NCBI GenBank assembly: GCA_963674945.2
Contig: CAXXWQ010000003.1
Location: 1,984,001 to 2,048,000, forward strand
Source: an uncultured Desulfosarcina sp.
GTDB lineage: Bacteria; Desulfobacterota; Desulfobacteria; Desulfobacterales; Desulfosarcinaceae
DNA length: 64,000 nt
Direction: 5' to 3'
Shown: positions 21,979-45,306 of the stretch, one piece after another
How positions within the stretch are numbered: position 1 is the stretch's first letter
Layout: each line of letters opens with the position of its first letter
Made by a program: the position numbers and the translations under genes
Notes under the pieces: generated by a model
Told to the model about the DNA's origin: nothing
Seen by the model: the letters and a program-made list of their open reading frames with translations, nothing else
The model's database searches: none

Positions 21979-22464
21979 GTGGATGATAAGTCAAGGTTTA
22001 AAATAGGCCGAATGGATAATTTGCCAGAAATAATACGCCGATTAAAAGAAATGGAGGATTTAAAAAGCGATAAAGAGATCGCTGAACTATTCGATTTAAC
22101 GCCACAAGAGTTTAGCAGAAGAAAAAAACGTGGAACATTACTTGCAAAAATTATAGATTGGGGAATATGCCAATCGGCAGATTTAAATTGGCTTTTAACT
22201 GGTGAAGGCTCGCCTTATGTCGGCCAACAGAGGCACTCCTCGAACGTCCTCGATATTAAACACAATTGTGTCATTCAGGAATTCGATGACAAGGAATTCG
22301 CTATCGAGGTCAATGAGGCGCTGGTGGCCCTGGAAAAGGCATCGACAAAAAATTTTTATGAGATCGGCGGATACATAAAAAGGGCTGCCCAGGAGGCGAA
22401 GCAAAAACATTCCGTCGACGATGAAACTCGTTTGACAGGGACGGAAGATACAGCAAAAAAATAA
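21979..22464 (+). CDS. CI-like prophage repressor (HTH, no S24 peptidase visible)
   Basis: RLK....LKSDKEIAELF...FS.RKKRG; DLNWLLTGEG. Confidence 0.85.
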   Translation: MDDKSRFKIGRMDNLPEIIRRLKEMEDLKSDKEIAELFDLTPQEFSRRKKRGTLLAKIIDWGICQSADLNWLLTGEGSPYVGQQRHSSNVLDIKHNCVIQEFDDKEFAIEVNEALVALEKASTKNFYEIGGYIKRAAQEAKQKHSVDDETRLTGTEDTAKK

Positions 22465-22484
22465 AGGCTGACGGGCACCAGAGA

Positions 22485-22859
22485 ATGAAACAGAGTTCTA
22501 TTGAGCCGCCCCGTCGTGATCAGCGCGTCAGCGATAGAAAATTTCACGATGGGTATTTGGAGATGGTTGTCCATCTATCAGGCTATATTGGGCATGTCAC
22601 AACCTATGGCAACTTCCCGAAAACCGTGGGAATCAAATATCTGGCTGGTTGTTATTTACATGATTTTACTGATATTGACAGGCCGAAAAAAATACTCGAT
22701 GCGGTATGCAAGACAATAGATACAAGACTCATATCCACTTTGCATTTTAAATTTGAAGGTTTGCTCCGCGTCGGGATTATATATCCGTTCGATCACCGAT
22801 GCGCCCTCGTCAGGATTTTCGCTCCAAGGAATGAACCCGAAACCTGTTTTGGTATTTGA
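22485..22859 (+). CDS. Hypothetical protein
   Basis: ORF following the repressor. Confidence 0.55.
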   Translation: MKQSSIEPPRRDQRVSDRKFHDGYLEMVVHLSGYIGHVTTYGNFPKTVGIKYLAGCYLHDFTDIDRPKKILDAVCKTIDTRLISTLHFKFEGLLRVGIIYPFDHRCALVRIFAPRNEPETCFGI

Positions 22860-22889
22860 GCAGTGTATTTAAAATGAAGGAATTTTCTG

Positions 22890-23396
22890 ATGAATAAAAT
22901 TATTTTCTCAATATTGTCTTTATTAATGTTGGCAGGATGCTCTAATGATTATTCGAACGAACAGAAAGCAAAACCCCTTGAAAGAACAGTTCACATAAAA
23001 ATGAATACAGCTATAAACAAGGGAGAACAAGAAATTCTGCGCATAGCCGTTTTTGAATTTTTTATGACGTGCCAACCATTAAAACAAAAATATCTCGATG
23101 ATATTGAATATATTGAATATGTTTCAAAAATGTCATGCGACAAGGATTCATATTATGATTATCGCTGTGAAAAATATGGTTGGTCAAATGTGCTTTATTT
23201 AAAAATGAAAATAAAAGATGACGCCAAGTTGATTCCTTCTGATTTGCGTGCTTGGGGTCATATCGAACACATCTACATCGGCGGTCCATCAACCCCTGGA
23301 TTTACTATGTCCAAATTTCCACTGCTTTGCGGCGCACAACAGTATGACGGAGAAGATGTATTTATTCCATCCCAAGGAATGGCCAAACTTTTTTGA
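22890..23396 (+). CDS. Putative lipoprotein (moron)
   Basis: Lipobox LAGC; AT-rich. Confidence 0.75.
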   Translation: MNKIIFSILSLLMLAGCSNDYSNEQKAKPLERTVHIKMNTAINKGEQEILRIAVFEFFMTCQPLKQKYLDDIEYIEYVSKMSCDKDSYYDYRCEKYGWSNVLYLKMKIKDDAKLIPSDLRAWGHIEHIYIGGPSTPGFTMSKFPLLCGAQQYDGEDVFIPSQGMAKLF

Positions 23397-23425
23397 GGAT
23401 GTATAAAAAAGAGGGGAAGGCTTAA

Positions 23426-23818
23426 ATGAAAAAAACAATATTTATGCTTCTTTTAATATTATTTCCGACGTGCGTTTTTTGTGGCGAGTGGTACGAGGGC
23501 GGAACATTATTTGAAGCGAATGCACTTGAATGGCAAAAGGCCACCTATGCAAATAAAATGGCGACATGTGCTAATTTTCTTGCCGCATATGCTAAAGCAG
23601 GATTATTAAATGACGACTTGACATCAAGGTTTAATGAGCCTGATGATTACAAGCCGTATGCCATAGAATTAGCAAATTCGCTCGATAAGGTTTTTAAGAG
23701 GGACCCTGATGACGGTAAAAATATCATGCTGTTTTCAAACCAAGAAGTTAAAACGTTTGCCGCCATGATCGTTATTGGTAGCGGATGGGCAAAGCCGGAA
23801 TACTCCAACGGCAATTAG
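23426..23818 (+). CDS. Exported hypothetical protein (moron)
   Basis: Signal peptide; WYEGGTL...EWQKA..ANK.ATCA motif. Confidence 0.75.
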   Translation: MKKTIFMLLLILFPTCVFCGEWYEGGTLFEANALEWQKATYANKMATCANFLAAYAKAGLLNDDLTSRFNEPDDYKPYAIELANSLDKVFKRDPDDGKNIMLFSNQEVKTFAAMIVIGSGWAKPEYSNGN

Positions 23819-24043
23819 GTTACCAAAAATACGTCAAACTCATTTCCGACTTTCAAAAATCTGCTGTTTTTATTACCAACCGAAATAATTAATAAAATCT
23901 ATTTTTATATAATTTTTTACCCATTTCCGTTCATTTCCGACTTTTTTCATTTTACTGTTTCTGAAAACAACTTTTAAATCTGGCTTAAATCATTAATCAA
24001 CGCGCCTTCATATCTATTTCAAACACCTGTCGTAGATATCACA

Positions 24044-24217
24044 TGGTTTTAAACCAGCCGTCAAATCCACCCGAAATTTCCATTTTGGTTTCAAACCGAC
24101 TGTAACGCCGTTATCCGATCCAGTCCAATCACAACCAACCAAAATCACGACACATCCCACCACATCACATCAAATCCCGGCCAATCCCATTGGTTTCATA
24201 CCAGGTGATAGGGCACA
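24044..24217 (-). repeat. Mu left end with putative transposase-binding repeats
   Basis: TGGTTTTAAACC (24044), TGGTTTCAAACC (24086), TGGTTTCATACC (24191); terminal ...GCACA. Confidence 0.7.
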
Positions 24218-24364
24218 GGACTCGTAGTCGGAAACAGTAGGAATATTGATTACGGACAAGGTAGGAAGGGGAGGGCATTTTGATCACCGCTGTCTGTCAT
24301 TTTGTGTAAGACTTTTGTGTAACAGCCGGAATTGATCAAAATTGTAGGTATCTCTAGAAAAATC

Positions 24365-24394
24365 AATGGCCTACCGCGTAAACAGTAGGCCATT
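24365..24394 (-). terminator. Hairpin downstream of the tRNA 3' end
   Basis: AATGGCCTAC/GTAGGCCATT inverted repeat. Confidence 0.6.
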
Positions 24395-24400
24395 TGATGG

Positions 24401-24445
24401 TGGTGCCGAGGGACAGAATCGAACTGCCGACACGGGGATTTTCAG
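24401..24445 (-). other. 3' half of tRNA-Phe(GAA): attachment site of the island
   Basis: CTGAAAATCCCCGTGTCGGCAGTTCGATTCTGTCCCTCGGCACCA; 5' half absent; tandem arm-like CTTTAGCCA repeats at ~24564-24583. Confidence 0.9.
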
Positions 24446-25031
24446 ACTTCGTGCCTGGTTTTTCAAACCCCCTTGCCTGACAGTAACTTGCAGAAATAAC
24501 ATTAAAAACGCCATAAACCATTTTACCCTAATTTCCTCTGTTTTCCGCATTCTAAATAATTTTCTTTAGCCATTCTTTAGCCAAAAAACCGGTTTAAGCT
24601 CCTCTAAAAAAGCCTTTAAATAAGGCCGTACAAATTGGATTTCTATAGGGCCTTTGTATAGGCAAGGCCGACTTTTTACGCTAATTAGCGTGAAAATTGT
24701 TTGCCACCCCTGTCGTCCGCTCTGCTCCCGACTATCTTCCTTTTCCGAACGGCTCCGCTAACGCTCCGGGCCGGCTTAACATCTCGAGCCAAAAGGAAGA
24801 TAGTCGGGAGCACCACGATTTTGTATCCATCCAGCCAAACCGTCTTGAATGAGCTTTGCCTGGACGGACAAAATCGGGGCTCCGACAGGGGCGGCACTAA
24901 TGGCTTCCAAAGCCAACTGTTTTTTTATAACTAATTGTTTCCATAACTAATTTCAGCTTAGGAGAAAAATATCAATCCATTTTTAATAAAGCCTTGCTAA
25001 GATGTAAACACTAAAAATTAACGAAAAACCT

Positions 25032-26024
25032 ATGGCTAAAAAAGAAATCCAGACGCGGAAATCCCGCTTTGACCGCGTTCCGGATCAGCGCATTCTGCAA
25101 ATCCAACCGCGCGATATTGAAATACTGGTTGCTTTGGCTCGCTATCGCTTTCTGACTTCACGCCAATTAATCGCCTTAACCGGCGGAGGGGAACAAGGGG
25201 TTTTGCGGCGCTTGCACCGGCTCTTTCACAATGGCTTTATTAATCGCCCCCGAGTGCAGATAAAAACCAGGACAATCGGCACCGAGCCCATGGCCTACGC
25301 CTTAAGTCGAAAAGGAGCCGACTGGCTCTGTGAGCAAGGCAAAATCACCGGCCGGAAACAAAACCAAATTAGAAGGGACCAGTGGGTCAGGGATGTCTTC
25401 CTGGATCACGCCTTATTGGTATCAAACTTCATGGTAACCATGGAGCTGGCTTGCCAGGCCGTAAGCAATTTAGAACTTTTAAGACAGGAGGATATGGTCA
25501 GGCATATCGAAAGATTAAACCTTAAAACAAAAATGAGAGACAGGATAAATCCTCTCTGCGGCCGGTTTCTATCCGACTATGTGCTTGATAGAGATGGGCA
25601 AAAAATAAAATTGTCTATTGTGCCGGACCAGCTATTCGGTCTGTATTTCCCGGACGAGCCGGACGGCAAAAACGAAATTTTCTTTGCTCTGGAAGCAGAC
25701 CGCTCCACCATGCCCATTATCCGGTCTGATTTTAAAAGCTCCTCCTATTTAAAAAAGATGCTGGGCTACTGGGAAGGCTATCACCAGAATGTCTATGAAA
25801 AATTATACGGCATAAAGGGCTTGCAGGTTTTGACCATTACCACCACTAAGGAGCGGATAAACAATATGATTGAGGCCGGCAAATTAATTGATCAAAGAAA
25901 AAAAGGCTCCCGCATGTTCCTGTTTGCTTGCTCAAGCGACATAGACATCGAACGCCCCACCTATATTCTGGAACAAATCTGGCGAAACGGGCGGGACAAG
26001 GAGCTTGTGAGCATGATTGAGTAA
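25032..26024 (+). CDS. Replication-relaxation family protein
   Basis: RD.EIL..L.RYRFLT..QL, RRL..L, L.H.L, IVPD, FALEADRSTM. Confidence 0.88.
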   Translation: MAKKEIQTRKSRFDRVPDQRILQIQPRDIEILVALARYRFLTSRQLIALTGGGEQGVLRRLHRLFHNGFINRPRVQIKTRTIGTEPMAYALSRKGADWLCEQGKITGRKQNQIRRDQWVRDVFLDHALLVSNFMVTMELACQAVSNLELLRQEDMVRHIERLNLKTKMRDRINPLCGRFLSDYVLDRDGQKIKLSIVPDQLFGLYFPDEPDGKNEIFFALEADRSTMPIIRSDFKSSSYLKKMLGYWEGYHQNVYEKLYGIKGLQVLTITTTKERINNMIEAGKLIDQRKKGSRMFLFACSSDIDIERPTYILEQIWRNGRDKELVSMIE

Positions 26025-26093
26025 ATAGCTTGGCGCGGCCAGTATGTCGAAATTTTTCCATAATCCTTTAATTTTATGGTGATAAAATAATAT

Positions 26094-26276
26094 ATCAACC
26101 TGGTTCCATCCAGGGGCTCAAGTGAAGATCTGCTCGCTTGTTAGAAAAACATTCAGAGCAGACTCAGGTGCCTTTTCTTGGAGAGTAACCTTGTTTCTCG
26201 GATGTTATCGGGCAAGGTTAGGTCGCTCTTTTGTTTCCGAGGCAAAGACAGGCGGTTGAACCAGGTTGATTTTTTT
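26094..26276 (+). ncRNA. Candidate multi-branch small RNA
   Basis: Extended -10 TGaTAAAAT (26080-26088); 13-bp closing stem; internal hairpins; U-tract. Confidence 0.5.
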
Positions 26277-26450
26277 CTATATTTAAATTTCTCACCGTTC
26301 AATTAACTTTCTAATTTAATGTTTATATAACTATCTTAAATAATATGCAAAAAGAACATTTTTCCTATTGACAAGATCTTGTTTGGAAATTATTTTTTAT
26401 GTGAGAAATATATACTTTTGGCCATACGAAAATAGAAAAGGAAAATCGTT

Positions 26451-27218
26451 ATGGCACAAAAAAAAGATTGGCTTCTAATATGTTTGACCAGTTTTATCAT
26501 TTATCCAGTCTTTTCTGCCGAAAGCGCTAATCGAATCGAACCAACCTCTTTGATTCAAGTAAAATGTGATTATCGGGTAGGCAGTAATGAAACTCTTTTA
26601 AACGCGCGCCAGGCCTGTTTTCGAGAAGCCAGGCGGCGGGCCACGGAAAAAGCCGGTGTTTATCTGCGTAGCTATACCAAACTTCACTATCAAGCCGGTA
26701 AAACCTTCCCCATATTGGAAGAAAAAATCGAAACTTTTACTGCCGGTTTTATAAAGGCAGATATTTTAAAAGAAGAAATCCGTTTAGAACATGACCAGCT
26801 TATTATCAGTCTGACCGTAGGCGCGAGAGTCCGCTTGGATGACCTGAAAAAAAGGTTTTATGAGTATACCCTATCAAATGAGCCTGTCCGAAAAGCGTTG
26901 ATAGCCAAGCCTCAAGTAATATATGAAAAAACATTTAGAAAGAAAGATCAGGATAAAGACGGCAATATTCGCGCGTTTACCTGGAATAAAGAGATAAAAA
27001 TCGGTGATATTATCGAAGTAATCAGCCTGGCACCGAAGCAATCCAATATTTATATTTATCGCGGGAAACAGTTCGAGCCCAGTTGGAAATTAGCTCAAAA
27101 CGGCTACCACCAGGGACGGATCGAACACGTACCTGTAGGCAAGAGCTATTACCTTTGGACTGAATCTAAGGACGATTTCGAAATCAAAGTAAAGATCACC
27201 CGCCGGAGTGGAATATAA
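26451..27218 (+). CDS. Exported hypothetical protein
   Basis: Signal peptide; AR.....A.R.A.EKAGVY..S motif. Confidence 0.75.
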   Translation: MAQKKDWLLICLTSFIIYPVFSAESANRIEPTSLIQVKCDYRVGSNETLLNARQACFREARRRATEKAGVYLRSYTKLHYQAGKTFPILEEKIETFTAGFIKADILKEEIRLEHDQLIISLTVGARVRLDDLKKRFYEYTLSNEPVRKALIAKPQVIYEKTFRKKDQDKDGNIRAFTWNKEIKIGDIIEVISLAPKQSNIYIYRGKQFEPSWKLAQNGYHQGRIEHVPVGKSYYLWTESKDDFEIKVKITRRSGI

Positions 27219-27633
27219 ATCTCCATATTTTCTTAATATGACTTATAATTCCAAGCCAGTCAAAAGCATGGGGTTTTTACAGTAAGCTCCTTATTGCGAA
27301 GGCCGGAACATAGTTTTTGAAAAATAAAAAGTCTTATTAGGAGCAGCATTTCATTACTATACCTAAATACCATACGTAGTACAAATATTTAACTGCCTAT
27401 ATAAATCTTCAAATCCGCCGACAAAATGACGCAATTTGGAGAGACATGACATTTTTTGACAGTTGGTGGCGCAATATAATATAATAATAACAGTGGTATA
27501 CTGTTGTGCATGATTTTTGCAATTTAAATCGTTCATTAAAAAAATAAAGGAGAATGATTATAATCTGAAATTAAAAGGCTTAATTAACGAAAATTTTTCT
27601 TGACAAATTGAAACATTAAAAAATAGACATATT

Positions 27634-27924
27634 ATGGAGGCTCCCCTCATGAAGAATAAATCCATTTCTATTTCAGATTTACAAAAACAACTGCCATCTT
27701 TAGTCGTTGGATTAAATAAGTCCGGTATTATAATCACAGACGGAAAAGCCGAGGTTGCTGTGCTATTAAGTATTCGGGAATATCGATCAATGAAAGCAAT
27801 GATAAAATTAGCAGGCGATCCAGAAAAACTACTTTCTTATTATAAAAATGTAAAAAAGGTTCAAGACGGGGATCTTGCTGATTACAAAAATGTGACAAAG
27901 TTAATTTCTGGTAGCAATAAATAA
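27634..27924 (+). CDS. Phd/YefM-like antitoxin
   Basis: ISISDLQKQL, IIIT.GK..AVLLS..EY. Confidence 0.75.
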   Translation: MEAPLMKNKSISISDLQKQLPSLVVGLNKSGIIITDGKAEVAVLLSIREYRSMKAMIKLAGDPEKLLSYYKNVKKVQDGDLADYKNVTKLISGSNK

Positions 27925-27939
27925 ATCGAGGTTATTACA

Positions 27940-28206
27940 ATGTCGGAAGTATTTGACGAACTTTTTTATGATGAAAAAGTTTATGATTATCTCGACCCAC
28001 TTTCTAAAAACACCCCTACATATAAAGAACGTGATTGTATAGAGGAACTTTTCAAGAAAGTATGTAAGGGCATAGATCCGCTATATCCCATTCCAAATCA
28101 GCCTGGTGCCTACCAACCGATTGAGGATTGTAATCACGAAATTTTGTTTGCAAAAAGGAAAAAAAAGCTAGTTGCCATTAATATTCGACGAGTAAAAAAT
28201 CCTTAA
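27940..28206 (+). CDS. Small protein, possible divergent RelE-fold toxin
   Basis: 88 aa, directly after the Phd-like gene; C-terminal beta-strand pattern EILF...LVAINIR. Confidence 0.5.
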   Translation: MSEVFDELFYDEKVYDYLDPLSKNTPTYKERDCIEELFKKVCKGIDPLYPIPNQPGAYQPIEDCNHEILFAKRKKKLVAINIRRVKNP

Positions 28207-28581: not shown

Positions 28582-29655
28582 TTAATTCACATTACACATA
28601 AATGTTTCTCTATTCTGAACGCAAACATGCCAAGTATATTTTCCTTCTACCGAATCGAAATGATAAATTTGTATAGTTGGATACGCGTTAGGCTGATATT
28701 CCGTTCCCAATTTAAAAACAGTAGAGGCCTGAGCCGCTATAAATAAATGAACTTTTTCGATTTGGGCATAACCATCCTTTCCGCGCAAATTCCGTATCAA
28801 ATCATGAATCTTTTTTAATATTCTATTAAGCTTTTCACTGCTACTCATGGCGTCAGTACGAGGACCGTCACCGCTTAAATGAATCCATATAGTTTTATCC
28901 GATAAATCATTAGGAATCTGCGATTTTGGAATATCAATGGTGAAGGGCAATGCAATTGCGATTTCAGTACCAGAAAAATTTATCGGAAAAGTGATATCTA
29001 TATCTTCTAAATCATCCATATCATCCAGTGTGTGCCACTTTAGCTTAAATCTATTGTAATCCATAGTAATAAGATTTGCTCGGTTAGCGATTTCCACCCC
29101 TGCGGCATATAAAAGCGGGACAGGAGCAAGACCGGCAAATACTAAAAATGGAGTATCAGTACCAGTATCAATATATCTTTCGTTTAAAATTCTGCTGAAT
29201 ATCTGAATTTCAGCAAGCGCCTTTTCAGGAGAAATAGATGCCGTGTTTATGGTCAATGAATTCACATTCCCGTAACGGTATTTCGGGGGCATATCTTTGA
29301 TTGGAGGCGAATCATGCATGCCCGGCAATCCTCGGAAATATATCAGGCAGGATTTACGGTGCTTATTAACCTGTCTTAGCCCCCATATTCCAATTATTAC
29401 CCCTAAGAGCGCCAGGATTAATCCCGTATACGTAACGGTATCTGGTCCGATACTAACAGAAAAAGATGCTGGTAGACCCTCCGGTTTAATTTCAAAAACA
29501 ACCAGCAGCCACCATATCCCGCCGGGTGCCATTAGGCCGACACCTAAAGTCAAAAGAAACCGTGCAAAGCTGGTTATTGGATCAACAGACCTGAATTTCA
29601 GCCATTGGTTCCAGAACTGCCAACATAGATTCACTACCTTATCAAACATTTTCAT
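28582..29655 (-). CDS. CBASS 2TM-SAVED effector
   Basis: Two N-terminal TMs; FAGLAPVPL..AAG, VHLFIAAQAS.VF.LG SAVED motifs. Confidence 0.9.
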   Translation of the reverse strand: MKMFDKVVNLCWQFWNQWLKFRSVDPITSFARFLLTLGVGLMAPGGIWWLLVVFEIKPEGLPASFSVSIGPDTVTYTGLILALLGVIIGIWGLRQVNKHRKSCLIYFRGLPGMHDSPPIKDMPPKYRYGNVNSLTINTASISPEKALAEIQIFSRILNERYIDTGTDTPFLVFAGLAPVPLLYAAGVEIANRANLITMDYNRFKLKWHTLDDMDDLEDIDITFPINFSGTEIAIALPFTIDIPKSQIPNDLSDKTIWIHLSGDGPRTDAMSSSEKLNRILKKIHDLIRNLRGKDGYAQIEKVHLFIAAQASTVFKLGTEYQPNAYPTIQIYHFDSVEGKYTWHVCVQNRETFMCNVN

Positions 29656-30139
29656 TCACCTCCGGAATTACCACTGTAGCTAACTCTACAAATTGAGCCG
29701 ACCGGTTTCCCCGCCATACACGGATATTTCTGGTCCCGATGATCAAAAAAAATAAAAATTCACCAAAGAATTCTCCCCGTCTCAGAGTATTTTTCCAATC
29801 TTTAAAATCAACCCTTGAAGGATGCGGTGTGGGTTCAGGGTGGGTATGCCAGAGCCCGACAAGAGTTTGGGTTTTGTCTGATAATTTCCATTTCTGATAA
29901 ACTAATTTGTTATGATGGGCTGATCGGAAGAAAAAGGTATAACGTCGTTTATCCCGGCGTGTCGGCTCAGTAATACTATCTACAACAATGTGATCGCCTA
30001 CCAGTAAATGCCGCCCGATTAATAATCCGCCCGCTTCCTTTCTTCGTTTGTCAATTTGTCGATAAGATATTAATCTGTCGACAACACTTTCAAGCACAAT
30101 AAGTTTGCGTTTATTTTCTATTGGACAAGAAAGCCGCAT
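29642..30139 (-). CDS. cap3: CBASS Cap3 JAB deubiquitinase-like protein
   Basis: EAGGLLIG, GLWHTHPE...PS..D. Confidence 0.92.
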   Translation of the reverse strand: MRLSCPIENKRKLIVLESVVDRLISYRQIDKRRKEAGGLLIGRHLLVGDHIVVDSITEPTRRDKRRYTFFFRSAHHNKLVYQKWKLSDKTQTLVGLWHTHPEPTPHPSRVDFKDWKNTLRRGEFFGEFLFFLIIGTRNIRVWRGNRSAQFVELATVVIPEVNENV

Positions 30140-31899
30140 TAAGTAGTTTTCCCGCAAACCGGACAAGACGGTTTGGCATAATCATTGGAATTAATTTCCG
30201 GCGGCATGGATGCCGCTTTATTGTACCAGTCGCTAAGCTCCAACTTTTCCCTTAAAGCTTCGGAACTGTCTCCGACCCAAAATTTATAGCAGGCCGACTT
30301 ATTGTTAACGATATAATTTAAAGCCAGTTCGCTTGTCATAGTGGCCGTTTTAATAGCGTCCAATGCTGAAAAAGGCGTAAAACCACCCCCACAGCCGGTA
30401 AGGTCTTTGCCGACCATCTGGTACGGCTTTAAGAATGATGATCTAAAATACGGTCCTTGTGGGCCTTTCTCTATTAAGCATTCTAAACAGCCGTTTGAAT
30501 TGTGATCGATAAGTATCGCGTGACCGCCAATTCCGCAAGCTTCCAACCAACAGCAAATTAACGGTGGCGGAGATTTAATTTTATAAAACTCTTTGTTCAT
30601 CTCGCGCAAACCAGTCAAGTCAGCAGTCGCGTCAATTATGATATCAACCTCTTGCAAGCCATTTTTCTCTAACCATTTTTCCCTTTTAATCGGTTCAGGG
30701 ATCACCTTGATATACGGGAGCCTCTGGCTAAGATTTTGATAAATAGCCTCGGCTTTTCGATTTCCAATGTCTTCACCCCCCAATAAATGGCGGTGAATGT
30801 TATCCGCGGACAAAATATCGTCGTCAATTACAACCAATTTACCGATACCGCTAAGCGCCAGTTGTTCCGCAATTCTTGAACCGACCGCGCCGCCTCCGAT
30901 TATAGCCACCGAAATATCATATATCGATTTATTTGCTCCCCCCCGTTCTACAAGGTACTCTCGATTCTGTCTTAAAATGTTAATTGGTGAGACATTCCAG
31001 TTTTGTATATCCTTGCTGAGAAAAAAAGGATATTTTGAGCGGCCCGAAATAGTGACGCCGAACATGGCCTTATGCCGGGATGGCCGGATTTGTGAAAAAA
31101 TAAAGAACTCAGTCCGATCCTTTTCTTTCCGGTTTTTAGTTTTTTCAGCTTTTCTTAGTAGTTGGGTGAACTTATCACGGTCTGACGGTTTAATACTGTT
31201 ATATAATTTTTTAACATAATTGGGGGTCAGGCCGGCGTCCATATCAGGTGGGAAGCCAGGAATATGGAGCGGAATATAATATCCTTTTTTAATTTGATTT
31301 TTTTTAAATCTTTCCGTGTATCCGTAGTTTTCTGGTAAAGTCGAATTATAGCATAAGTTCGGAGTTGTTTTTCTCCTAAAAGTCTTTTTCTTAGAGGAAG
31401 AGGAACTGATTTTAAAATTAATTTTACTTACTTTATCACCAGGCTCAAAAAAACAATGGATAGTCGTAATTTCCGGAAGCGATTGCCAATATCCTTCAAA
31501 CTCTTCAAATAGTTCGGTAAGATCCCTGTGGTAACTGCCTTTAAGGACTTTGATGACCTGATCGATAGATTGATATAGTACGGCTTTCGGATTATCCGCA
31601 TTAATAAAAATACTCGCAGACTTATCAATAAAGCAGATATCACCGTTAAAATTGACATGATTATGAAAATCGTGTGTTTCTGGCGAAGATAAAAAGAAAT
31701 AAGGAAGAGCGTTAGGAAAATTTATGGGTTCACAAATTAAAAGTTCATATTCAATTTTGCCAGCTTGAACCAGGCATGAAAAGGCTTTTGAAAGTTTCTT
31801 TTTGTAACCATCAATTCTTTTCGGAAGGCTCTCGATCTCTACGGCTTCGACGAAAATTATTTTAGCATGATCCCGCAATAAAATTTCAAAATCATACAA
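30139..31899 (-). CDS. cap2: CBASS Cap2 E2-E1 (ThiF) protein
   Basis: E2-like FP..LP, HVN..GDIC; E1 IIGGGAVGS, D.D.L...NI.RH, CLEC, C-terminal CPVC. Confidence 0.92.
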   Translation of the reverse strand: MYDFEILLRDHAKIIFVEAVEIESLPKRIDGYKKKLSKAFSCLVQAGKIEYELLICEPINFPNALPYFFLSSPETHDFHNHVNFNGDICFIDKSASIFINADNPKAVLYQSIDQVIKVLKGSYHRDLTELFEEFEGYWQSLPEITTIHCFFEPGDKVSKINFKISSSSSKKKTFRRKTTPNLCYNSTLPENYGYTERFKKNQIKKGYYIPLHIPGFPPDMDAGLTPNYVKKLYNSIKPSDRDKFTQLLRKAEKTKNRKEKDRTEFFIFSQIRPSRHKAMFGVTISGRSKYPFFLSKDIQNWNVSPINILRQNREYLVERGGANKSIYDISVAIIGGGAVGSRIAEQLALSGIGKLVVIDDDILSADNIHRHLLGGEDIGNRKAEAIYQNLSQRLPYIKVIPEPIKREKWLEKNGLQEVDIIIDATADLTGLREMNKEFYKIKSPPPLICCWLEACGIGGHAILIDHNSNGCLECLIEKGPQGPYFRSSFLKPYQMVGKDLTGCGGGFTPFSALDAIKTATMTSELALNYIVNNKSACYKFWVGDSSEALREKLELSDWYNKAASMPPEINSNDYAKPSCPVCGKTT

Positions 31900-31901
31900 A
31901 A

Positions 31902-32897
31902 CTATGCGCTTTCTCCAGCCGGGACAAAACCGGCCACAGTTGCTTTCTTAGCGGTATCTTTAGATTCCGGAACCGGAAAGTCATCACCGAATTGTTTCCT
32001 CAATATTTTACAGGCCTCCTCTTCTAAATCCTCATCCCGTGCTTCCTTCAAAGCGTCTCGCAGGGTTTCAAGCTTTTCGTTAAATGCGTCCATCTGGCTT
32101 TGCGTCATCTTGGCATTAAGATCACCGTATGGCTGAACCGGCAGGGAGATTGTTAGCCAATCATTATTATCAAAATTATTTAACATCATATCACATAAGG
32201 AAATCAGGGCGTTAATATCCTCATATTCACCAGAAAACAAATCCTTATATGGGGAGAACCATTTTACGGCCGCAATTGTAAGGGCAATACTGAACGGTTT
32301 GCCTGAATATAGCTTTTGGTCCCGCCACTTTTTAAGATAGCGGATACAGCGGCGCATTTGCGCTTTGTCATTGGCGTCGGTGAATCGGTTGTTAACTTCA
32401 TTGATCAAACCCTTGGGGTCGGATATTTCCCAAAATTTTTTTTCGGAGTCTGAAAATTCTTTACCCATGGCAATATCAAGGAGCGATTCATACTGGCGTT
32501 TAACATAAATTGCCAAGTCAACATGATAATCTACTTCACCATTTTTTAGATATTCCACGGTAACGCATGGCCGCCTTATCGCGACACTGCGGTTGCCTTT
32601 GTTTAACGCGGTCTTTACAATTTTCTTTAATTCGACCGGATCTTCATAATCATCTTTATGGCAATCAAATATGATCCCCTCATCAATGTCATAATTGCCA
32701 TCCTTGGGATTAATTCCGGTAAACATAGCATAGCTGCCCTGGTCAAAATTTTCAAAAGCGGGAGCGTCATCAGGTAAGCCGGCTTTCAGGTCATCAATCA
32801 ACAATTTCCTTTTTTCGCGCAGGGTTTGATTCTCATTGAAGTTGTCGAGTTTTATTTTATTATGGAACTCAATAAATCGGTTCTGCACCTTAGGCAT
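31902..32897 (-). CDS. cGAS/DncV-like nucleotidyltransferase (CD-NTase)
   Basis: QGSYAM.T, DIDEG, RRPCVTV, HVDLAIY, IRYLKKWR, FG.DFP; C-terminus GESA. Confidence 0.95.
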   Translation of the reverse strand: MPKVQNRFIEFHNKIKLDNFNENQTLREKRKLLIDDLKAGLPDDAPAFENFDQGSYAMFTGINPKDGNYDIDEGIIFDCHKDDYEDPVELKKIVKTALNKGNRSVAIRRPCVTVEYLKNGEVDYHVDLAIYVKRQYESLLDIAMGKEFSDSEKKFWEISDPKGLINEVNNRFTDANDKAQMRRCIRYLKKWRDQKLYSGKPFSIALTIAAVKWFSPYKDLFSGEYEDINALISLCDMMLNNFDNNDWLTISLPVQPYGDLNAKMTQSQMDAFNEKLETLRDALKEARDEDLEEEACKILRKQFGDDFPVPESKDTAKKATVAGFVPAGESA

Positions 32898-32997: not shown

Positions 32998-33072
32998 ACC
33001 ATAACGCAGCTTATTTGTTTGTCAATACCATATATTGTGCGATATCATCGCAATGGATACAATATAGAGTGC
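32998..33072 (-). promoter_or_regulatory. Putative CBASS promoter with tandem NrdR-like boxes
   Basis: TTGACA (33025-33020), 16 nt, TATGGT; boxes ATACCATATATTGTGC (33025-33040) and ATACAATATAGAGTGC (33057-33072). Confidence 0.6.
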
Positions 33073-33183
33073 CACAAAGTGGTATGCTACTTTCTTGTTT
33101 AAAAATGTCAGTCAAATTATCCGATTCATTCAATACCATTTTTAATAATAATAAGAGGCACATCCACTAAAGAATAATAATTC

Positions 33184-33312
33184 CTATTTTTTGATTTTTA
33201 TAGTTTCAACGACAGCGGTTCTTTTACGTCTTTCCGCTTCTTTCACCGGGATAAATTTACCGGTCCCGGCGTCTCTTCCAATCTTTCTGGTATTTGTTCT
33301 TTTCTTTCCCAT
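33184..33312 (-). CDS. Small basic protein (42 aa, GRDAxTGxFI motif)
   Basis: MGKKRTNTRKIGRDAGTGKFIPVKEAERRKRTAVVETIKIKK; AAAGGA RBS. Confidence 0.8.
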   Translation of the reverse strand: MGKKRTNTRKIGRDAGTGKFIPVKEAERRKRTAVVETIKIKK

Positions 33313-33326
33313 TTCGAAATCCTTTC

Positions 33327-33585
33327 TTAATTGACCGTATAGTATTTCCACGGAATTGCATTCATCGGAACTTGAGATAAAAAGCGCACAATATCCCGAC
33401 GCCCATAATAAGTGGGAGTGCCTCTATGGTTTTGTGCCATTAGAACAACCGGCATATGGAAATAGACTGGCAAAGCTACGAATCGCTTCATTCGCTTGGC
33501 AAGAGCTTTGGGTGACTTGGTGTTTTACCACTACAATGGCAAAAGTTACGTTTTGTTCTTTTATGACCGCTCCTTGAATTCTCAT
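33327..33585 (-). pseudogene. Small hypothetical gene with a frameshift
   Basis: MRIQGAVIKEQNVTFAIVVVK...SLFP / MPVVLMAQNHRGTPTYYGRRDI...PWKYYTVN; 259 nt, frames offset near 33455. Confidence 0.65.
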
Positions 33586-33603
33586 TCTATCCTTTCCCTT
33601 TCA

Positions 33604-33688
33604 TATATAATACGATGACGGGTTACAGGTTTTATGATATGGAAGATACATTTCCATCTTCTAATATAATATACGACATGGGGTTACA
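33604..33688 (-). promoter_or_regulatory. Two copies of TGTAACC-N5-TCGTAT-N2-TATA
   Basis: 33604-33627 and 33665-33688; third copy at 36621-36644. Confidence 0.75.
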
Positions 33689-33699
33689 GAGGAGGGGAT

Positions 33700-34224
33700 A
33701 TGGATAAACCAAGATACGGCTATGCCAGGCAACTAGCCAGAAAAGTAATAAAAGATTGTTGTGGTGCTTGCCCGCCGGTTGATTTAAAATCAATCTTAGC
33801 TCAAAAAGGTTTTGAGTATATTGAGGTAGATAACTTTCTTGATGATATCGATGCTTTATTTTTACGTAATGAAAACGACGGAAAAACCTATGCCGCCGTG
33901 AATAAGAACCATCATGTCCATCGACAGCGATTCTCTCTGGCTCATGAATTTGGGCATATTTTGATGAACCATGATCTTAATTACTATCGGCCCTACATTA
34001 CTATTGACGATCCCCCTACAGAGAAAACCCATACCGATGCTGAAGCGGCCTCTGAAAAAGAGGCTAATGCCTTTGCTGGTGAACTCTTAGTGCCGTTAGA
34101 AATGCTAAAGAAGGAATTCGAAAAGACTCCTCCTGATATAAAGCAATTATCAAAGATATTCTGGGTGAGCCCGCAGGTAGCAAGTATCGCTGTGAGCAAC
34201 CATATGAGCGCATTATATAAGTAA
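33700..34224 (+). CDS. ImmA/IrrE (CapP-like) metallopeptidase
   Basis: RQRFSLAHEFGH (HExxH); EKEANAFAGELL. Confidence 0.93.
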   Translation: MDKPRYGYARQLARKVIKDCCGACPPVDLKSILAQKGFEYIEVDNFLDDIDALFLRNENDGKTYAAVNKNHHVHRQRFSLAHEFGHILMNHDLNYYRPYITIDDPPTEKTHTDAEAASEKEANAFAGELLVPLEMLKKEFEKTPPDIKQLSKIFWVSPQVASIAVSNHMSALYK

Positions 34225-34905
34225 GTCTTTAGCGTCTCTTTTAAGTAATTCCTGTTTTAGGGAATCTATGTAAGCGGATTCGATTTTTTCCGTTTCCACT
34301 CGGCCATGACCCTTCTTTTTTTCAATCGCCGCTTGAAGGGCATCCATGGCGTGTGCTATTCGAGCGCTTTTGTCTCCGGCGTCTGACTTGATCGATGACC
34401 TTGCCATTCCGCTTATTCTTTGCCGTTTAGCCGCATTAGTAGCCAAAAATGCATTCAAAGTAGTAACAATATCAGTGATGGTCAGTCTGAACAATTGCAT
34501 AATATCCGCCATATCTTTAGCCATCAGTTTCAACGGATTGATCTGGCCATTTTCTAATCTCTCAACAAACGAGGATTCTTTATTTAAGGAATGAGCAACC
34601 TGGGAATGTGATAATCCGCTCCTATCTCTGATCAGTTGGAGAAAGCGTCCCAAGGGTAGGCTTGAAATATGTGTTTTAGCGCGAGCTTCCACAATTGCGT
34701 TTTCTGAAGAAGCTTTGGCTACTATATTATAAAAAGTGTCTTTTTCAGTGATTTTCAATTCTGTCGGCTCTATCTGATTAAATAGCCTCTCAAGATTATC
34801 TTCCATGGCGCTGTCAAAAGCACCATTCTCGGCCATGGCCCGCAATTCTGCATCAAACCTCGTCAAATCCAATTTTTTGATTTTATCAATTTGATGTTTT
34901 TTCAT
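34213..34905 (-). CDS. XRE-type HTH-containing protein (candidate anti-sigma/repressor)
   Basis: LGRFLQLIRDRSGLSHSQVA.......ERLENG; overlaps the 3' end of the sigma gene. Confidence 0.75.
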   Translation of the reverse strand: MKKHQIDKIKKLDLTRFDAELRAMAENGAFDSAMEDNLERLFNQIEPTELKITEKDTFYNIVAKASSENAIVEARAKTHISSLPLGRFLQLIRDRSGLSHSQVAHSLNKESSFVERLENGQINPLKLMAKDMADIMQLFRLTITDIVTTLNAFLATNAAKRQRISGMARSSIKSDAGDKSARIAHAMDALQAAIEKKKGHGRVETEKIESAYIDSLKQELLKRDAKDLLI

Positions 34906-35341
34906 TACTGGCCTCAATCCCGAATCTTTTTTTTATTTTTATAGAAACGCATTGATCTTCGTAAGAATCTAAAATGATTAAAATTTTATCTCTCAATTTA
35001 TTTTTTGCTCGATGATAGGCTGTTTTTACAGCTCCGACGGTTTTGTTTAAAGATTTTGCAATTTCTTTTTGCGGGATGTCACAAGCGCAACATCTTAGAA
35101 TTTCTTGATCAGTTTCACTTAGGCATTCAATAGCTTGGCACAAAATCGTTTGGGGTAGGTTTTGCTCTGAGTTTGCAGGTTCCTTCCAAAATGTTTCAGA
35201 ATCCTGAATCCCTTTCGCGGTCCGTTCATCTAAACTTTGTGATATCGAAGGATCTTTAATTTGCTTTATTTTATCTTTGGCGGTGTTGATGGCTATACGT
35301 ACCACCCAAGCGTTAAAGCTACTGCCTCTATTTAAATCAAT

Positions 35342-36389
35342 CTGGGGTATGCACTTGACTCCAGTGGCCACAACATATAGTGTACCAGTCTATGGAGGAA
35401 GATTACCCCAGAACGTTGATAGAATTTGAAAAACGATTTAGCTCTGAAGCTGGATGCACTGACTATTTGATGGCTCTTAGATGGCCCGAAGGCTTCCGTT
35501 GCCCTCATTGCGGTTCTGCATCCTCGTGGAGAACTAAACGATCCCAGTTTCATTGTACTGATTGTGGAAATCAATCTACGATAACTTCCGGTACAATTTT
35601 TCACGGCACCAGAAAGCCCTTGTCTCTTTGGTTTCGGGCTATGTGGCACATTACAGGTCAGAAGTACGGAGCTAATGCACTTGGGCTTCAGAGAGTACTT
35701 AACCTTGGGAGTTATAATACCGCCTGGCAATGGCTCCATAAACTTCGAAGAGCAATGGTTCGTCCAGGACGTGACCGATTGTCCGGGATTGTTGAAGTTG
35801 ATGAAACCTATGTCGGTGGGAAAAAGTCTGGAAAACGCGGTCGGGGTGCTGAAGGTAAAGCTTTGGTCGGTATTGCCGTGGAGGATAAAGGCCGAAAAGG
35901 AATTGGGCGAATTAGACTCTGGCACCTCGAAGACGCATCGGGAGATAGTCTGACTCAATTTGTACAAGAAATCGCCCAGCCAGGCAGCACCATCAGGACG
36001 GATGATTGGCCCGGCTATAGCAGCCTTGGCGATAAAGGATTTAAGCATATTGCGATTCCATCGCATGACTTGAAGATTGTACATTTGGTAGCGTCGCTCA
36101 TGAAACGATGGTTACTTGGTACTTATCAAGGGGCGGTCAGACCGTCTCATTTGATGTACTATTTGGATGAATTCACATTCAGGTTCAACCGTAGAACATC
36201 AGTGTCTCGCGGAAAACTATTTTACAGGCTGGTCCAACAGGCCGTGATGGTGGACCCTGCCCCAGCTAGTACTCTTAAAGGTGCATCGTTACCGTTTTTG
36301 GAAGGGGCAGCAAATTTAAATCTCGATCCAATTGACGATGACCTGGGCCACAACATATAGTATGTGCTGGATTTAAGTGCATACCCCAG
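35342..36389 (+). mobile_element. IS1595-family element, copy 1
   Basis: IR CTGGGGTATGCACTT; TTAAATCAA duplicated on the flanks. Confidence 0.95.
35380..36360 (+). CDS. IS1595 transposase
   Basis: LRWP.GF.CP.C zinc ribbon, VEVDETYVGG, TDDW, YLDEF.FRFNRR. Confidence 0.95.
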   Translation: MYQSMEEDYPRTLIEFEKRFSSEAGCTDYLMALRWPEGFRCPHCGSASSWRTKRSQFHCTDCGNQSTITSGTIFHGTRKPLSLWFRAMWHITGQKYGANALGLQRVLNLGSYNTAWQWLHKLRRAMVRPGRDRLSGIVEVDETYVGGKKSGKRGRGAEGKALVGIAVEDKGRKGIGRIRLWHLEDASGDSLTQFVQEIAQPGSTIRTDDWPGYSSLGDKGFKHIAIPSHDLKIVHLVASLMKRWLLGTYQGAVRPSHLMYYLDEFTFRFNRRTSVSRGKLFYRLVQQAVMVDPAPASTLKGASLPFLEGAANLNLDPIDDDLGHNI

Positions 36390-36620
36390 TTAAATCAAAT
36401 TTACCAATATTTTTAACAACTTTGTAAAGGCTGTCATTTACCACTTCCAGGCTATCTTGGTGTGATAATCCGTATGATTTGGTCAAAGATAATAACTTGC
36501 CGGAATATCTATCAACCAATAACTTCAGGCAGATAGGATCATTTGCCCTAATACCAAGAACAAGGTCAGAGTCTTTTGTTTGCGCATCCATCTTTATCCG
36601 CATTTGCTTTCATTCTTTTT

Positions 36621-36644
36621 TATACAATACGAAAGTTGGTTACA
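36621..36644 (-). promoter_or_regulatory. Third TGTAACC-N5-TCGTAT-N2-TATA motif, upstream of the sigma gene
   Basis: Ends 17 nt before the sigma ATG. Confidence 0.75.
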
Positions 36645-36745
36645 CAACGAGCAACCATAGCCACGCCGCCACAAATCCCGGCAAGAGGTATTGAAGCAGA
36701 GAAACAAAATCTTTGGCAAATGTCTCCATCAGTGCCTCTAAAAAA

Positions 36746-37818: not shown

Positions 37819-38367
37819 TCCTCCTCCTTTAGGCAAAACTTTCCAAATCCAAAATCAGAAAGATCTCACCCGAACAAAGGTCTCCTTTATAATGTTGATT
37901 AAGGATTCGGTCAGCATGAGAATCTCTTTTAGTGGACCAAAACCTCAATAATAGTTTGTTCCACTATCATCTGTTTAGTGAAAGCTATCCGCATTGCGTC
38001 TGTCATTTTCATGGTATATAGTAATTGGGCATTCAAAGTTCGCAAAAAATTCATTACAAGTCAACATTTTACTCATTTTTCCACCTATCATTTATTCCTT
38101 TTATTCGCCGTCCTCTACCAGCCTCGCACCCAAAAGGAAGGCATCAAACCGTCCGTCAAGTTCATTGCGCTTTCCACCGGCCAATTAGAGTGAGCCACTC
38201 GCCCAAATACCTCTTGACACTAAATTACAGCCATAATACCTACAAGATATAGGTTATTTCCAATTAACCTAAAGTTCCTCTCGTAGAAAAATATTTCTAA
38301 TCGATAAGAAGTTTTACCATTTTTAAAGACAAGCAAAATTGTTTTTCAAAATTTACAGAGGTCCAGA

Positions 38368-39291
38368 ATGGAATCCAATATACAATTCAAATACGAGGTA
38401 GCGCTGACATTCGCCGGCGAAGACCGCGCCTTTGCCGAAGCCGTGGCCACAGGCCTAAAATCTGCCGGCGTAAACGTTTTTTACGACGATTTCTATATCG
38501 AGGACTTATGGGGACAGGATTTAAGCGTCAAACTGAGGGACGTTTACCGCCGGTCAAGCCAATTCTGTATCATGATCATCTCAGAAAACTATGTCCGCAA
38601 AATGTGGCCCAGCCATGAGCGCCAGCAGGCCATTGAACGAATGATACAGGATCATGGCAAAACATACATCCTGCCCGTCCGGCTTAATGGCTTTAAAGGG
38701 GAAGTTCCGGGCTTTTCTGACTCAATCAGCTACCTGGCCGTGAATAGTAACGACCCGCAAATTGTCGTGGACGCCTTTCTTAGAAAAATCGGCCGAAAAC
38801 CCGATTCTCCTAAAAAAACCAAAACAAGACAGGAAATGCCTAAAATCCGTCTTCCCAAAATGAAAAAGTCCTATACGGATAGAGAAAAAAACCAATTCCT
38901 AAAAGCCTCATTTACCGAAATAGTCAATATTATTGACAGCTTTGCCAGCGGCACCAAAGACGAATATCCTCATTTTGATTACGAGATGGAAAAGATAACC
39001 TCCCGGAAAGTACTGTTCACTCTTTATAATAATGACCAGCAAGTAACCCAGTTCAAAATCTGGATTGGCGGCATCTCAGGGGGGAATTCCATTGCTTTTT
39101 CCCACGGGCGAAATGTCAACGTAGATAATGACAATACCATGAATGAGTCAATATCCATAGAAGAGCACGAAGGCGAACTCAAATTAAAACCAATGGGATT
39201 TGGCCTGTTCGGCAATAATGCTGACAAACCAATGTCGCCCCGACAGTCAGCGGATTACCTTTGGGAAGTTGTTACCAAACATCTGCAATAA
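38368..39291 (+). CDS. TIR-domain protein
   Basis: YEVALTFAGEDR, VFYD, S..Y....WPSHE (catalytic-type Glu), ILPV. Confidence 0.9.
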   Translation: MESNIQFKYEVALTFAGEDRAFAEAVATGLKSAGVNVFYDDFYIEDLWGQDLSVKLRDVYRRSSQFCIMIISENYVRKMWPSHERQQAIERMIQDHGKTYILPVRLNGFKGEVPGFSDSISYLAVNSNDPQIVVDAFLRKIGRKPDSPKKTKTRQEMPKIRLPKMKKSYTDREKNQFLKASFTEIVNIIDSFASGTKDEYPHFDYEMEKITSRKVLFTLYNNDQQVTQFKIWIGGISGGNSIAFSHGRNVNVDNDNTMNESISIEEHEGELKLKPMGFGLFGNNADKPMSPRQSADYLWEVVTKHLQ

Positions 39292-43554: not shown

Positions 43555-45306
43555 ATGAAAAACCGAAAAATATTATTTATGGTGACTGTTTGGTTTTTAC
43601 TATTAATTTACCGGCCTTGTTTTGCAGATATAGATGATGTTCTAAAACAAATTGTTCCAAAAATGACTGGCTTAGGATACACCCATTTACAATATAACCC
43701 CTCCAAAGTTCCAGGTCATACTCATTTGGGGGTAGATATTATGGCTCCATGTGGATCTTTGATTTATCCATTTGCTGACGGAATTGTTACGAAGATATTC
43801 AATAATACAAACGGTCTCGGTTACGCTATTATGATTCGTCATCCTGGATTAGGTAGCCTCGGAAAGGATCTTTATACAATATATCTACATATGCAAAGCG
43901 AACCAAATATTAATGGCAAAATATTATCTACTGGCGATAATGTTTTTATTGATAAGCCGATAGGCGAAATAGGCGAATCAGGATTTGCATCTGGTTGTCA
44001 TACTCACTATGAAATTCGTAATTTTTATCATGAGAATGCACCTGGTGGTGGTTGGTATCATAAAGATTCAAAAAATTGCGATGGAACACAAAACATTTAT
44101 GCTTGTGGTGATTTGAGCGATGTTGATTGGGCTATAAATGATTGGGAAAATCCACAAACATTTAAAGTTTCTGGGGTATGCACTTGACTCCAGTGGCCAC
44201 AACATATAGTGTACCAGTCTATGGAGGAAGATTACCCCAGAACGTTGATAGAATTTGAAAAACGATTTAGCTCTGAAGCTGGATGCACTGACTATTTGAT
44301 GGCTCTTAGATGGCCCGAAGGCTTCCGTTGCCCTCATTGCGGTTCTGCATCCTCGTGGAGAACTAAACGATCCCAGTTTCATTGTACTGATTGTGGAAAT
44401 CAATCTACGATAACTTCCGGTACAATTTTTCACGGCACCAGAAAGCCCTTGTCTCTTTGGTTTCGGGCTATGTGGCACATTACAGGTCAGAAGTACGGAG
44501 CTAATGCACTTGGGCTTCAGAGAGTACTTAACCTTGGGAGTTATAATACCGCCTGGCAATGGCTCCATAAACTTCGAAGAGCAATGGTTCGTCCAGGACG
44601 TGACCGATTGTCCGGGATTGTTGAAGTTGATGAAACCTATGTCGGTGGGAAAAAGTCTGGAAAACGCGGTCGGGGTGCTGAAGGTAAAGCTTTGGTCGGT
44701 ATTGCCGTGGAGGATAAAGGCCGAAAAGGAATTGGGCGAATTAGACTCTGGCACCTCGAAGACGCATCGGGAGATAGTCTGACTCAATTTGTACAAGAAA
44801 TCGCCCAGCCAGGCAGCACCATCAGGACGGATGATTGGCCCGGCTATAGCAGCCTTGGCGATAAAGGATTTAAGCATATTGCGATTCCATCGCATGACTT
44901 GAAGATTGTACATTTGGTAGCGTCGCTCATGAAACGATGGTTACTTGGTACTTATCAAGGGGCGGTCAGACCGTCTCATTTGATGTACTATTTGGATGAA
45001 TTCACATTCAGGTTCAACCGTAGAACATCAGTGTCTCGCGGAAAACTATTTTACAGGCTGGTCCAACAGGCCGTGATGGTGGACCCTGCCCCAGCTAGTA
45101 CTCTTAAAGGTGCATCGTTACCGTTTTTGGAAGGGGCAGCAAATTTAAATCTCGATCCAATTGACGATGACCTGGGCCACAACATATAGTATGTGCTGGA
45201 TTTAAGTGCATACCCCAGTAAAGTTTTTTGTCCAAATTTGGTTCCTTTGAGTAAGGACACAAAAATACCAGGTCCTTCTGGAATAATAATTGACATAAGA
45301 AAATAA
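43555..45306 (+). pseudogene. Secreted M23 peptidase interrupted near its C-terminus by IS1595
   Basis: HLGVD, YLHM, HTHYE; rejoined tail TFKVFCPNLV...IPGPSGIIIDIRK. Confidence 0.88.
44171..45218 (+). mobile_element. IS1595-family element, copy 2 (transposase 44209-45189)
   Basis: Same IRs and protein as copy 1; 8-bp TSD TAAAGTTT. Confidence 0.95.

Follow-up and report, generated by a model that had tools for sequence, protein, structure and literature searches.

The promoter of a type II CBASS operon in an uncultured Desulfosarcina sp. appears, from sequence comparison, to carry a real and selected pair of NrdR-type boxes, which is non-canonical in one box and in its geometry, and which we regard as a new regulatory variant, of putative function, on an otherwise ordinary operon. 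The host NrdR probably binds this pair and, in the reading that we prefer and to which we assign a probability of roughly 0.55, represses CBASS and releases it as dATP falls.

The CBASS operon and the paired boxes of its promoter

The window referred to below is the whole stretch of DNA that was analysed, 64,000 nucleotides in length. The operon and its promoter comprise the following features.

28582..29655, minus strand: 2TM-SAVED effector, 357 aa (PADLOC 2TM effector 4.1e-35; SAVED 2.7e-35)
29642..30166, minus strand: Cap3 (JAB peptidase; PADLOC JAB 2.2e-50)
30139..31899, minus strand: Cap2 (E2-E1), 586 aa (PADLOC E1-E2 4.7e-125; ThiF and Prok-E2_B)
31902..32897, minus strand: 331-aa CD-NTase (DncV-like cyclase), encoded by the leading gene of the operon (PADLOC Cyclase 5.9e-126; PF21654, PF21713)
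32998..33003, minus strand: predicted -10 hexamer TATGGT, with a 16-bp spacer to the -35 (promoter prediction)
33020..33025, minus strand: predicted sigma-70 -35 hexamer TTGACA, directed towards the CD-NTase (promoter prediction)
33025..33040, no strand assigned: proximal NrdR-type box, 15.3 bits; C4, A6, A8, T9, T11, and G13 kept; its edge shares one base with the -35
33041..33056, no strand assigned: linker, 16 bp
33057..33072, no strand assigned: distal NrdR-type box, 9.6 bits; C4 and G13 kept; G11 (C6 on the coding strand)

The CD-NTase, Cap2, Cap3, and the effector, united in one operon, make up the complete set of type II CBASS, and the operon is a predicted anti-phage system that is ordinary in its coding part. 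In gene set and order it matches type II CBASS operons that have Cap2/Cap3 and a 2TM-SAVED effector, and its novelty is confined to the promoter. The GC content of the region is 36-43%, versus ~51% for the genome. At 21979-28206 of the window are a CI-like repressor, a Replic_Relax protein, and a Phd/YefM antitoxin next to a small partner gene, which give the island the look of a piece of an integrative element. A lone NrdR-like box without a partner (window 38240-38255, 11.6 bits) is found just downstream of a TTGACA promoter, ahead of a TIR-domain gene (38368-39291). The host is likely a sulfate reducer, as indicated by DsrA- and AprB-like protein N-termini and by the Deltaproteobacteria/Desulfobulbaceae labels that near homologs carry.

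The intergenic region of the CBASS operon is 287 bp long, with 28% GC, and the ATG of the CD-NTase, at 32897, lies 128 bp from the proximal box. The sequence-only reading had described two 16-mers, at 33025-33040 and 33057-33072, starting 32 bp apart, each matching the NrdR consensus at 13/16 positions, and the first of them touching a TTGACA -35 that faces the CD-NTase. Positions and spacing agree with the sequence, a recount gives the same number of matches for each box, and the contact consists of one shared base, the hexamer extending over 33025..33020 of the minus strand. What that description overlooked is the G at the conserved position 11 of the distal box.

The NrdR operators of RNR genes (E. 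coli nrdAB, nrdHIEF, and nrdDG, as well as S. coelicolor nrdRJ and nrdAB, as presented in PMC13584703 and PMC9110341) consist, as here, of two 16-bp quasi-palindromes. Also alike are C4 and G13 in both boxes, found in the window as well as in the homologous locus L093 described below, a non-conserved linker, here of 16 bp and within the 15-16 bp expected of an NrdR operator, an AT-rich core, contact with a sigma-70 promoter, here a predicted one, and the presence of nrdR in the host. Between C4 and G13, 7/8 positions of each box are A or T, as read from the sequence, the rule in PMC13584703 being at least 63%. The CBASS site differs from the RNR operators in its target, which is an immunity operon, and in the distal box, which, with G11, breaks the rule of A/T at positions 6 and 11 that the proximal box obeys; the same is true of L093. 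This rule is broken by 2/24 natural nrdD pairs too. In E. coli nrdAB, box 0 with the equivalent (mirror) defect showed a KD of 6.9 uM, compared to 0.6 uM once corrected, a position-6/11 defect in both boxes caused a >20-fold loss, and single boxes were not bound by NrdR in vitro (PMC13584703). G11 lowers the predicted affinity, and the site should be viewed as non-canonical and as no textbook NrdR operator.

The geometry of the site is also different. Both boxes are positioned upstream of the -35, whereas the boxes flank the -35 in 21/24 nrdD operators of the order, with TTGACA located within the linker; the CBASS-like geometry is present in 2/24. With the putative polymerase site, the pair shares one base of the predicted, conserved -35. 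In the window and in L093, L107, L133, and L134, a -35-like hexamer is positioned between -3 and +7 relative to where the pair ends.

Other elements predicted in this region were set aside. A plus-strand promoter, TTGTCA-18-TATCAT, was given little weight, its spacing, as judged by eye, not being kept in L093. The stem of a predicted terminator at 33069-33085 is weak, and a protein site is more likely there. Candidate sigma-54 and CRP/FNR sites, compared by eye with the consensus, have the wrong spacing or orientation.

Scores, conservation, and recurrence of the pair

The host encodes nrdR (5.5e-57, over the cut-off), the absence of which would have spoken against the sequence-only reading, and its product retains D15, R17, R26-29, and R37, the residues that contact DNA according to PMC9110341. 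A symmetric position weight matrix (PWM) was built from the operator pairs in 24/29 non-host nrdD loci of the same order, in a search seeded with the consensus of the sequence-only reading. With this matrix, the CBASS pair stands far above the AT-rich background that might have accounted for it, as judged by rank and by spacing, permutation, and shuffle controls. It scores 24.9 bits (15.3 + 9.6), which is rank 3 in the genome of 7,075,866 bases, the host nrdJ and nrdD pairs being lower (23.6 and 23.2 bits), and falls low among the training pairs, whose scores have a median of 29.85 and a range of 18.1-38.0 bits. Pairs of at least 24 bits number three at spacings 30-32, compared to 0-1 in each of 11 other three-spacing windows, one in total, and to a mean of 0.08 under 12 column-permuted matrices. 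At a threshold of at least 20 bits, there are seven at spacing 30-32 versus 0-3 in each of the 11 other windows, and the mean for the 12 permuted matrices is 0.58. Among dinucleotide shuffles of the 287-bp intergenic region, 1/20,000 attains the CBASS score. Of pairs with a summed mismatch of at most 7 at spacings 20-44, only two are present genome-wide, those of CBASS and Zorya III. The published NrdR pattern is passed by 45/48 training boxes and 22/24 training pairs and is failed by the CBASS distal box; the published regular expression matches 417 pairs in the host genome and is not selective enough to scan a genome with.

Some 20 homologous proteins with an identity of 59-85% are known, L093 being the sole close homolog whose leader DNA was compared. 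The same residue is found at 263/332 codon positions (79% identity), and four-fold sites are identical at 27/87, that is, saturated. The boxes are identical at 26/32 positions and the linker at 6-7/16 (binomial p 7e-9). The proximal box, with 12/16 bases identical, scores 15.5 bits, essentially unchanged, and the distal box, with 14/16 identical and the same G11 defect, scores only 5.2 bits; their starts are 31 bp apart, with a 15-bp linker. The -35 is kept at 6/6 positions and the -10 at 5/6 (TATGCT, with the same spacing), and little is kept in the promoter spacer (6/16), the upstream flank (14/40), or the first 30 bases past the -10 (5/30, ungapped). The persistence of both boxes in so diverged a homolog supports their proposed identity as an NrdR operator, and on this comparative evidence the box-pair site is under selection. 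Since L093 retains G11 and an equally conserved inverted repeat runs into the distal box, part of the footprint may belong to another protein.

Pairs are also present in the CBASS leaders of L107 and L169. L107, at 45% identity, is cargo of a Tn7-like element, and its pair (29.4 bits) abuts TTGAAA-17-TATGAT; L169, which belongs to the same order as the host, has a pair of 25.4 bits. The link between CBASS and NrdR is, as a scan of CBASS promoters reveals, not general: pairs occur at 2/63 CD-NTase homolog loci of all taxa, a set that includes many near-duplicate Streptococcus loci and from which 12/75 loci with a partial match or very short upstream sequence had been dropped before counting. 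Five further CD-NTase loci have no pair. A CD-NTase search of the host's order yielded matches in 9/401 genomes, host included, with a best identity of 45%, that of the phylum one weak non-host match in 226, and that of viral contigs one weak match. All plasmid matches are <60%, and no pair is present in the 4/63 plasmid records examined.

Pairs of at least 17 bits at spacing 30-32 were listed for the whole host genome. The best of them (31.3 bits, G000:C3:473856-473901; L071:9857) is located ahead of a complete Zorya III operon and is a stronger case than the CBASS site. Besides those of CBASS, nrdJ, and nrdD, others are found ahead of a sigma-54 activator (28.2 bits, G000:C4:435282; L072:1283), of an unassigned gene and a metallo-beta-lactamase-fold gene (20.4 bits), and of an SspBCD-PbeAC phosphorothioate operon (20.2 bits, G000:C4:2405584; L076:13585), the last one being kept in the two closest SspB relatives, L133 and L134 (21.9 and 28.5 bits). 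Pairs of at least 17 bits also precede two minC/minD loci, as well as dsrA- and aprB-like genes, and a 33-bp-spaced pair precedes ftsZ. The minC/minD and ftsZ pairs, together with a single box upstream of an smc-like gene, are at G000:C4:1640747, C4:1556146, C2:597941, and C3:208836. Cell division might possibly be coupled to the dNTP state through such pairs.

With the focal site excluded, 2/8 of the non-nrd top loci are defence loci (p 0.001-0.03, on an assumed 20-100 defence leaders among 2,940), and no pair is found at 16 other candidate host defence loci, a partial list obtained by five family searches. In the order outside the host, a box of at least 15 bits is present in 4/5 ZorG leaders (L163, L164, L165, and L168) versus 0/30 groES leaders; 1/5 has a full pair, and one further leader has a pair whose second box is weak. 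Pairs are found in 2/19 SspB leaders, both from the host's clade, and in 1/14 of CD-NTases. There is none for JetA (0/13), SduA (0/8), BrxA (0/16), or HsdM (0/30), and HsdM, as well as some CD-NTases, is often not the first gene, which makes those zeros weak. The groES control leaders likewise have no pair (0/30). Loci omitted from these counts are 11/30 for DUF4007 (host, one truncated, nine weak matches), 14/30 for BrxA (13 weak matches, one without upstream sequence), and 2/15, both fragments, for JetA. Over all defence loci of the order, pairs occur at 4/105, versus 0.18 expected from permuted matrices, with kin that are not independent, and this count does not differ from the 0/30 of groES (Fisher p 0.58). 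The comparison with groES and the 0/16 host loci rule out NrdR-type operators as a feature general to all defence genes; instead, certain clades of CBASS, Zorya III, and Ssp carry them repeatedly, which defence at large does not.

Candidate regulators other than NrdR

The DNA upstream of the paired boxes contains the following features.

33070..33085, no strand assigned: second conserved inverted repeat TRCCAC-N3-GTGGYA, non-NrdR-like (14/16 identical in L093; PWM -12 bits)
33184..33312, minus strand: small ORF, 42 aa, upstream of the CBASS promoter (ORF list; no Pfam match)
33327..33585, minus strand: small hypothetical gene, two overlapping ORFs, apparently frameshifted (first piece without Pfam match)
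33700..34224, plus strand: IrrE/ImmA-type (M78) peptidase, CapP-like, divergent from CBASS (PADLOC capP 2e-23; PF06114)
34213..34917, minus strand: 234-aa XRE-like HTH protein, its gene convergent with that of the peptidase (HTH_31 1.4e-06)
34886..35341, minus strand: 3' portion of a sigma-70-family gene into which IS1595 has inserted (Sigma70_r4_2 4e-09; 5' part beyond the IS)
35342..36389, plus strand: IS1595-family element (PF12762; NrdR-like box inside each end, at 35368 and 36348)

The earlier interpretation holds as far as the identity of the operator was tested, and it had overlooked the CapP-like peptidase/HTH module and the second inverted repeat, either of which could point to the true regulator or to a further one. 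Together with the distal box, into which it extends by 3 bp, the inverted repeat forms one 29-bp conserved block, and its pattern has four exact matches in the genome. Similar repeats are located at G000:C3:1074563 and C4:1992386. The peptidase, 174 aa long, covers positions 5-138 of the 242-position profile and is placed 800 bp from CBASS, behind two small genes; as in CapH/CapP systems, an M78 peptidase is thus present upstream on the opposite strand. The 42-aa ORF resembles the small proteins accompanying CapH/CapP-like modules. Two copies of a ~35-bp imperfect direct repeat at 33586-33699 of the window, between the peptidase and the small genes, may serve the sigma-HTH-peptidase module as its operator or promoter. 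This module appears to be decaying while CBASS is intact, because the small gene 33327-33585 is in two frames and the sigma-70-family gene (34886-36650) is split by IS1595. No ORF of at least 25 aa encodes a small capH-like HTH protein in the orientation of capP and with a promoter region common to it and CBASS, the single HTH gene being the convergent one of 234 aa, and there is no adjacent WYL gene among the ORFs beside CBASS.

An unlikely reading, although the one among the alternatives that survives best, is that the conserved block is the operator of another protein, either the adjacent XRE-HTH protein, cleaved by the CapP-like peptidase in a control by DNA damage like that of CapH/CapP, or a factor that recognises the inverted repeat. 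The NrdR likeness would then be partial, with one good box that NrdR could not use alone, single boxes not being bound by it in vitro (PMC13584703). The peptidase is divergent from CBASS as in CapH/CapP systems, in which CapH binds a conserved 22-bp region, also upstream of the -35 (bioRxiv 2022.04.27.489752), and the inverted repeat is conserved like the boxes (14/16), in one block with a defective distal box. This reading is at odds with the absence of a capH-like gene directly upstream of the peptidase, the HTH gene being convergent and the sigma gene broken by the IS, with the direct repeat that the peptidase module has of its own at 33586-33699, and with L093, where the promoter is kept, yet the 240 bp further upstream are without a trace of the small genes. 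It also leaves unexplained why a spacing of 31-32 bp is kept, why the changes in the proximal box preserve the consensus, and why L107, L169, Zorya III, and Ssp have pairs. Both readings could hold at once.

Perfect TTGACA -35 hexamers are typical of activator-independent promoters, and the perfect, conserved one found here counts against a quite improbable reading in which NrdR binds but activates, or merely reshapes, the promoter, with CBASS highest at high dATP, as under a phage degrading host DNA or in non-replicating cells. In the nrdD operators with the same geometry (2/24), repression is presumably the outcome, and the NrdR complex bends DNA sharply and restricts the polymerase (PMC9110341). 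What speaks for activation is the placement of the boxes upstream of the -35, the usual position of an activator, in a geometry common to several other defence pairs, as well as the topA gene of P. aeruginosa, which is activated by NrdR through a single box (PMC4409342). Like the CBASS candidate, topA is a non-RNR target of NrdR, but it is a core gene with one box, whereas here a pair is found on a horizontally acquired defence operon.

The IS1595 element is present in 12 genome copies, with a single NrdR-like box at 24/24 ends, located 24 bp inwards of the terminal repeat; at the left end, the predicted transposase promoter and the box overlap. Further copies in the window are at about 44170-45220 and 54060-55105. 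At the CBASS promoter, the terminal-repeat pattern, which would be expected 24 bp away from the box, is not matched. It is hardly credible that the pair arose by chance in AT-rich promoter DNA, or is what remains of an IS1595 end, and has no regulatory role: the 28% GC of the region, the 417 pairs matched by the loose published pattern, and the similar single boxes of the IS ends, one copy being 2.3 kb away, favour it, and it is contradicted by the shuffles, by the spacing and permutation controls, by the unmatched terminal-repeat pattern, and by conservation at saturated synonymous divergence, the L093 footprint largely refuting it.

Proposed control of CBASS by NrdR

The tetramer of NrdR loaded with dATP/ATP binds two boxes, turns the DNA by ~180 degrees, and restricts RNA polymerase, and NrdR loaded with ATP is unable to bind DNA (PMC9110341). 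According to PMC13584703, nrdR is present in 77% of bacterial genomes, and heterologous operators are bound by NrdR proteins. In the preferred reading of repression by NrdR, the protein would occupy the box pair when dATP is plentiful, holding the CBASS promoter down, and would leave it when dATP is drained, releasing CBASS. Placed immediately upstream of the -35, the complex would obstruct sigma region 4 as well as the alpha-CTDs. With its imperfect distal box, the site would be bound less strongly than the nrd operators, so that release would come early, at a low threshold, and would be tuned rather than switched.

Either the replication of phage DNA or that of the chromosome in ordinary growth could lower dATP, and the pairs at cell-division genes are in keeping with simple growth coupling. 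Phages degrading host DNA may raise dNTP pools, which counts against the drained-dATP reading. We consider infection as the main cue for release to be about half as probable as repression and release by NrdR as such. By analogy, a precedent for an infection trigger is provided by induction of the NrdR regulon in S. pneumoniae, where three NrdR-preceded operons are the most induced host genes in lytic infection, from 10 min on (PMC6755750).

It is possible, and we put it forward only tentatively, that NrdR governs a nucleotide-sensing immunity regulon in this lineage, with CBASS, Zorya III, and SspBCD having each gained operators. A phage that drains dATP, or that titrates NrdR with boxes of its own, would then turn several immune operons on together, and the operators of unrelated, horizontally acquired defence systems would have been placed just upstream of the -35.

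The CBASS regulators CapH/CapP, CapW, CapK/CapS, and RptR reportedly travel with their system and sense DNA damage or ssDNA, whereas NrdR is a chromosomal housekeeping repressor sensing dATP/ATP. In PMC5343134, the NrdR regulon of Proteobacteria includes nrd genes, yfaE, trxA, topA, and a few locus tags. A literature search, with subscription journals mostly outside its scope, returned no paper linking NrdR to CBASS or to any defence promoter, none on NrdR and Zorya, and none on NrdR, phage infection, and dNTP; the terms 'phage' and 'transpos' are absent from the text of PMC12051234.

If CBASS is indeed under the control of NrdR, the operon would gain a second input, namely the dNTP pool that is drawn on by a replicating phage. 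Such control would take up just ~48 bp of DNA, without any gene dedicated to it, and would escape both gene-based defence annotation and heterologous tests on foreign promoters. The NrdR regulon would in that case extend past nucleotide synthesis.
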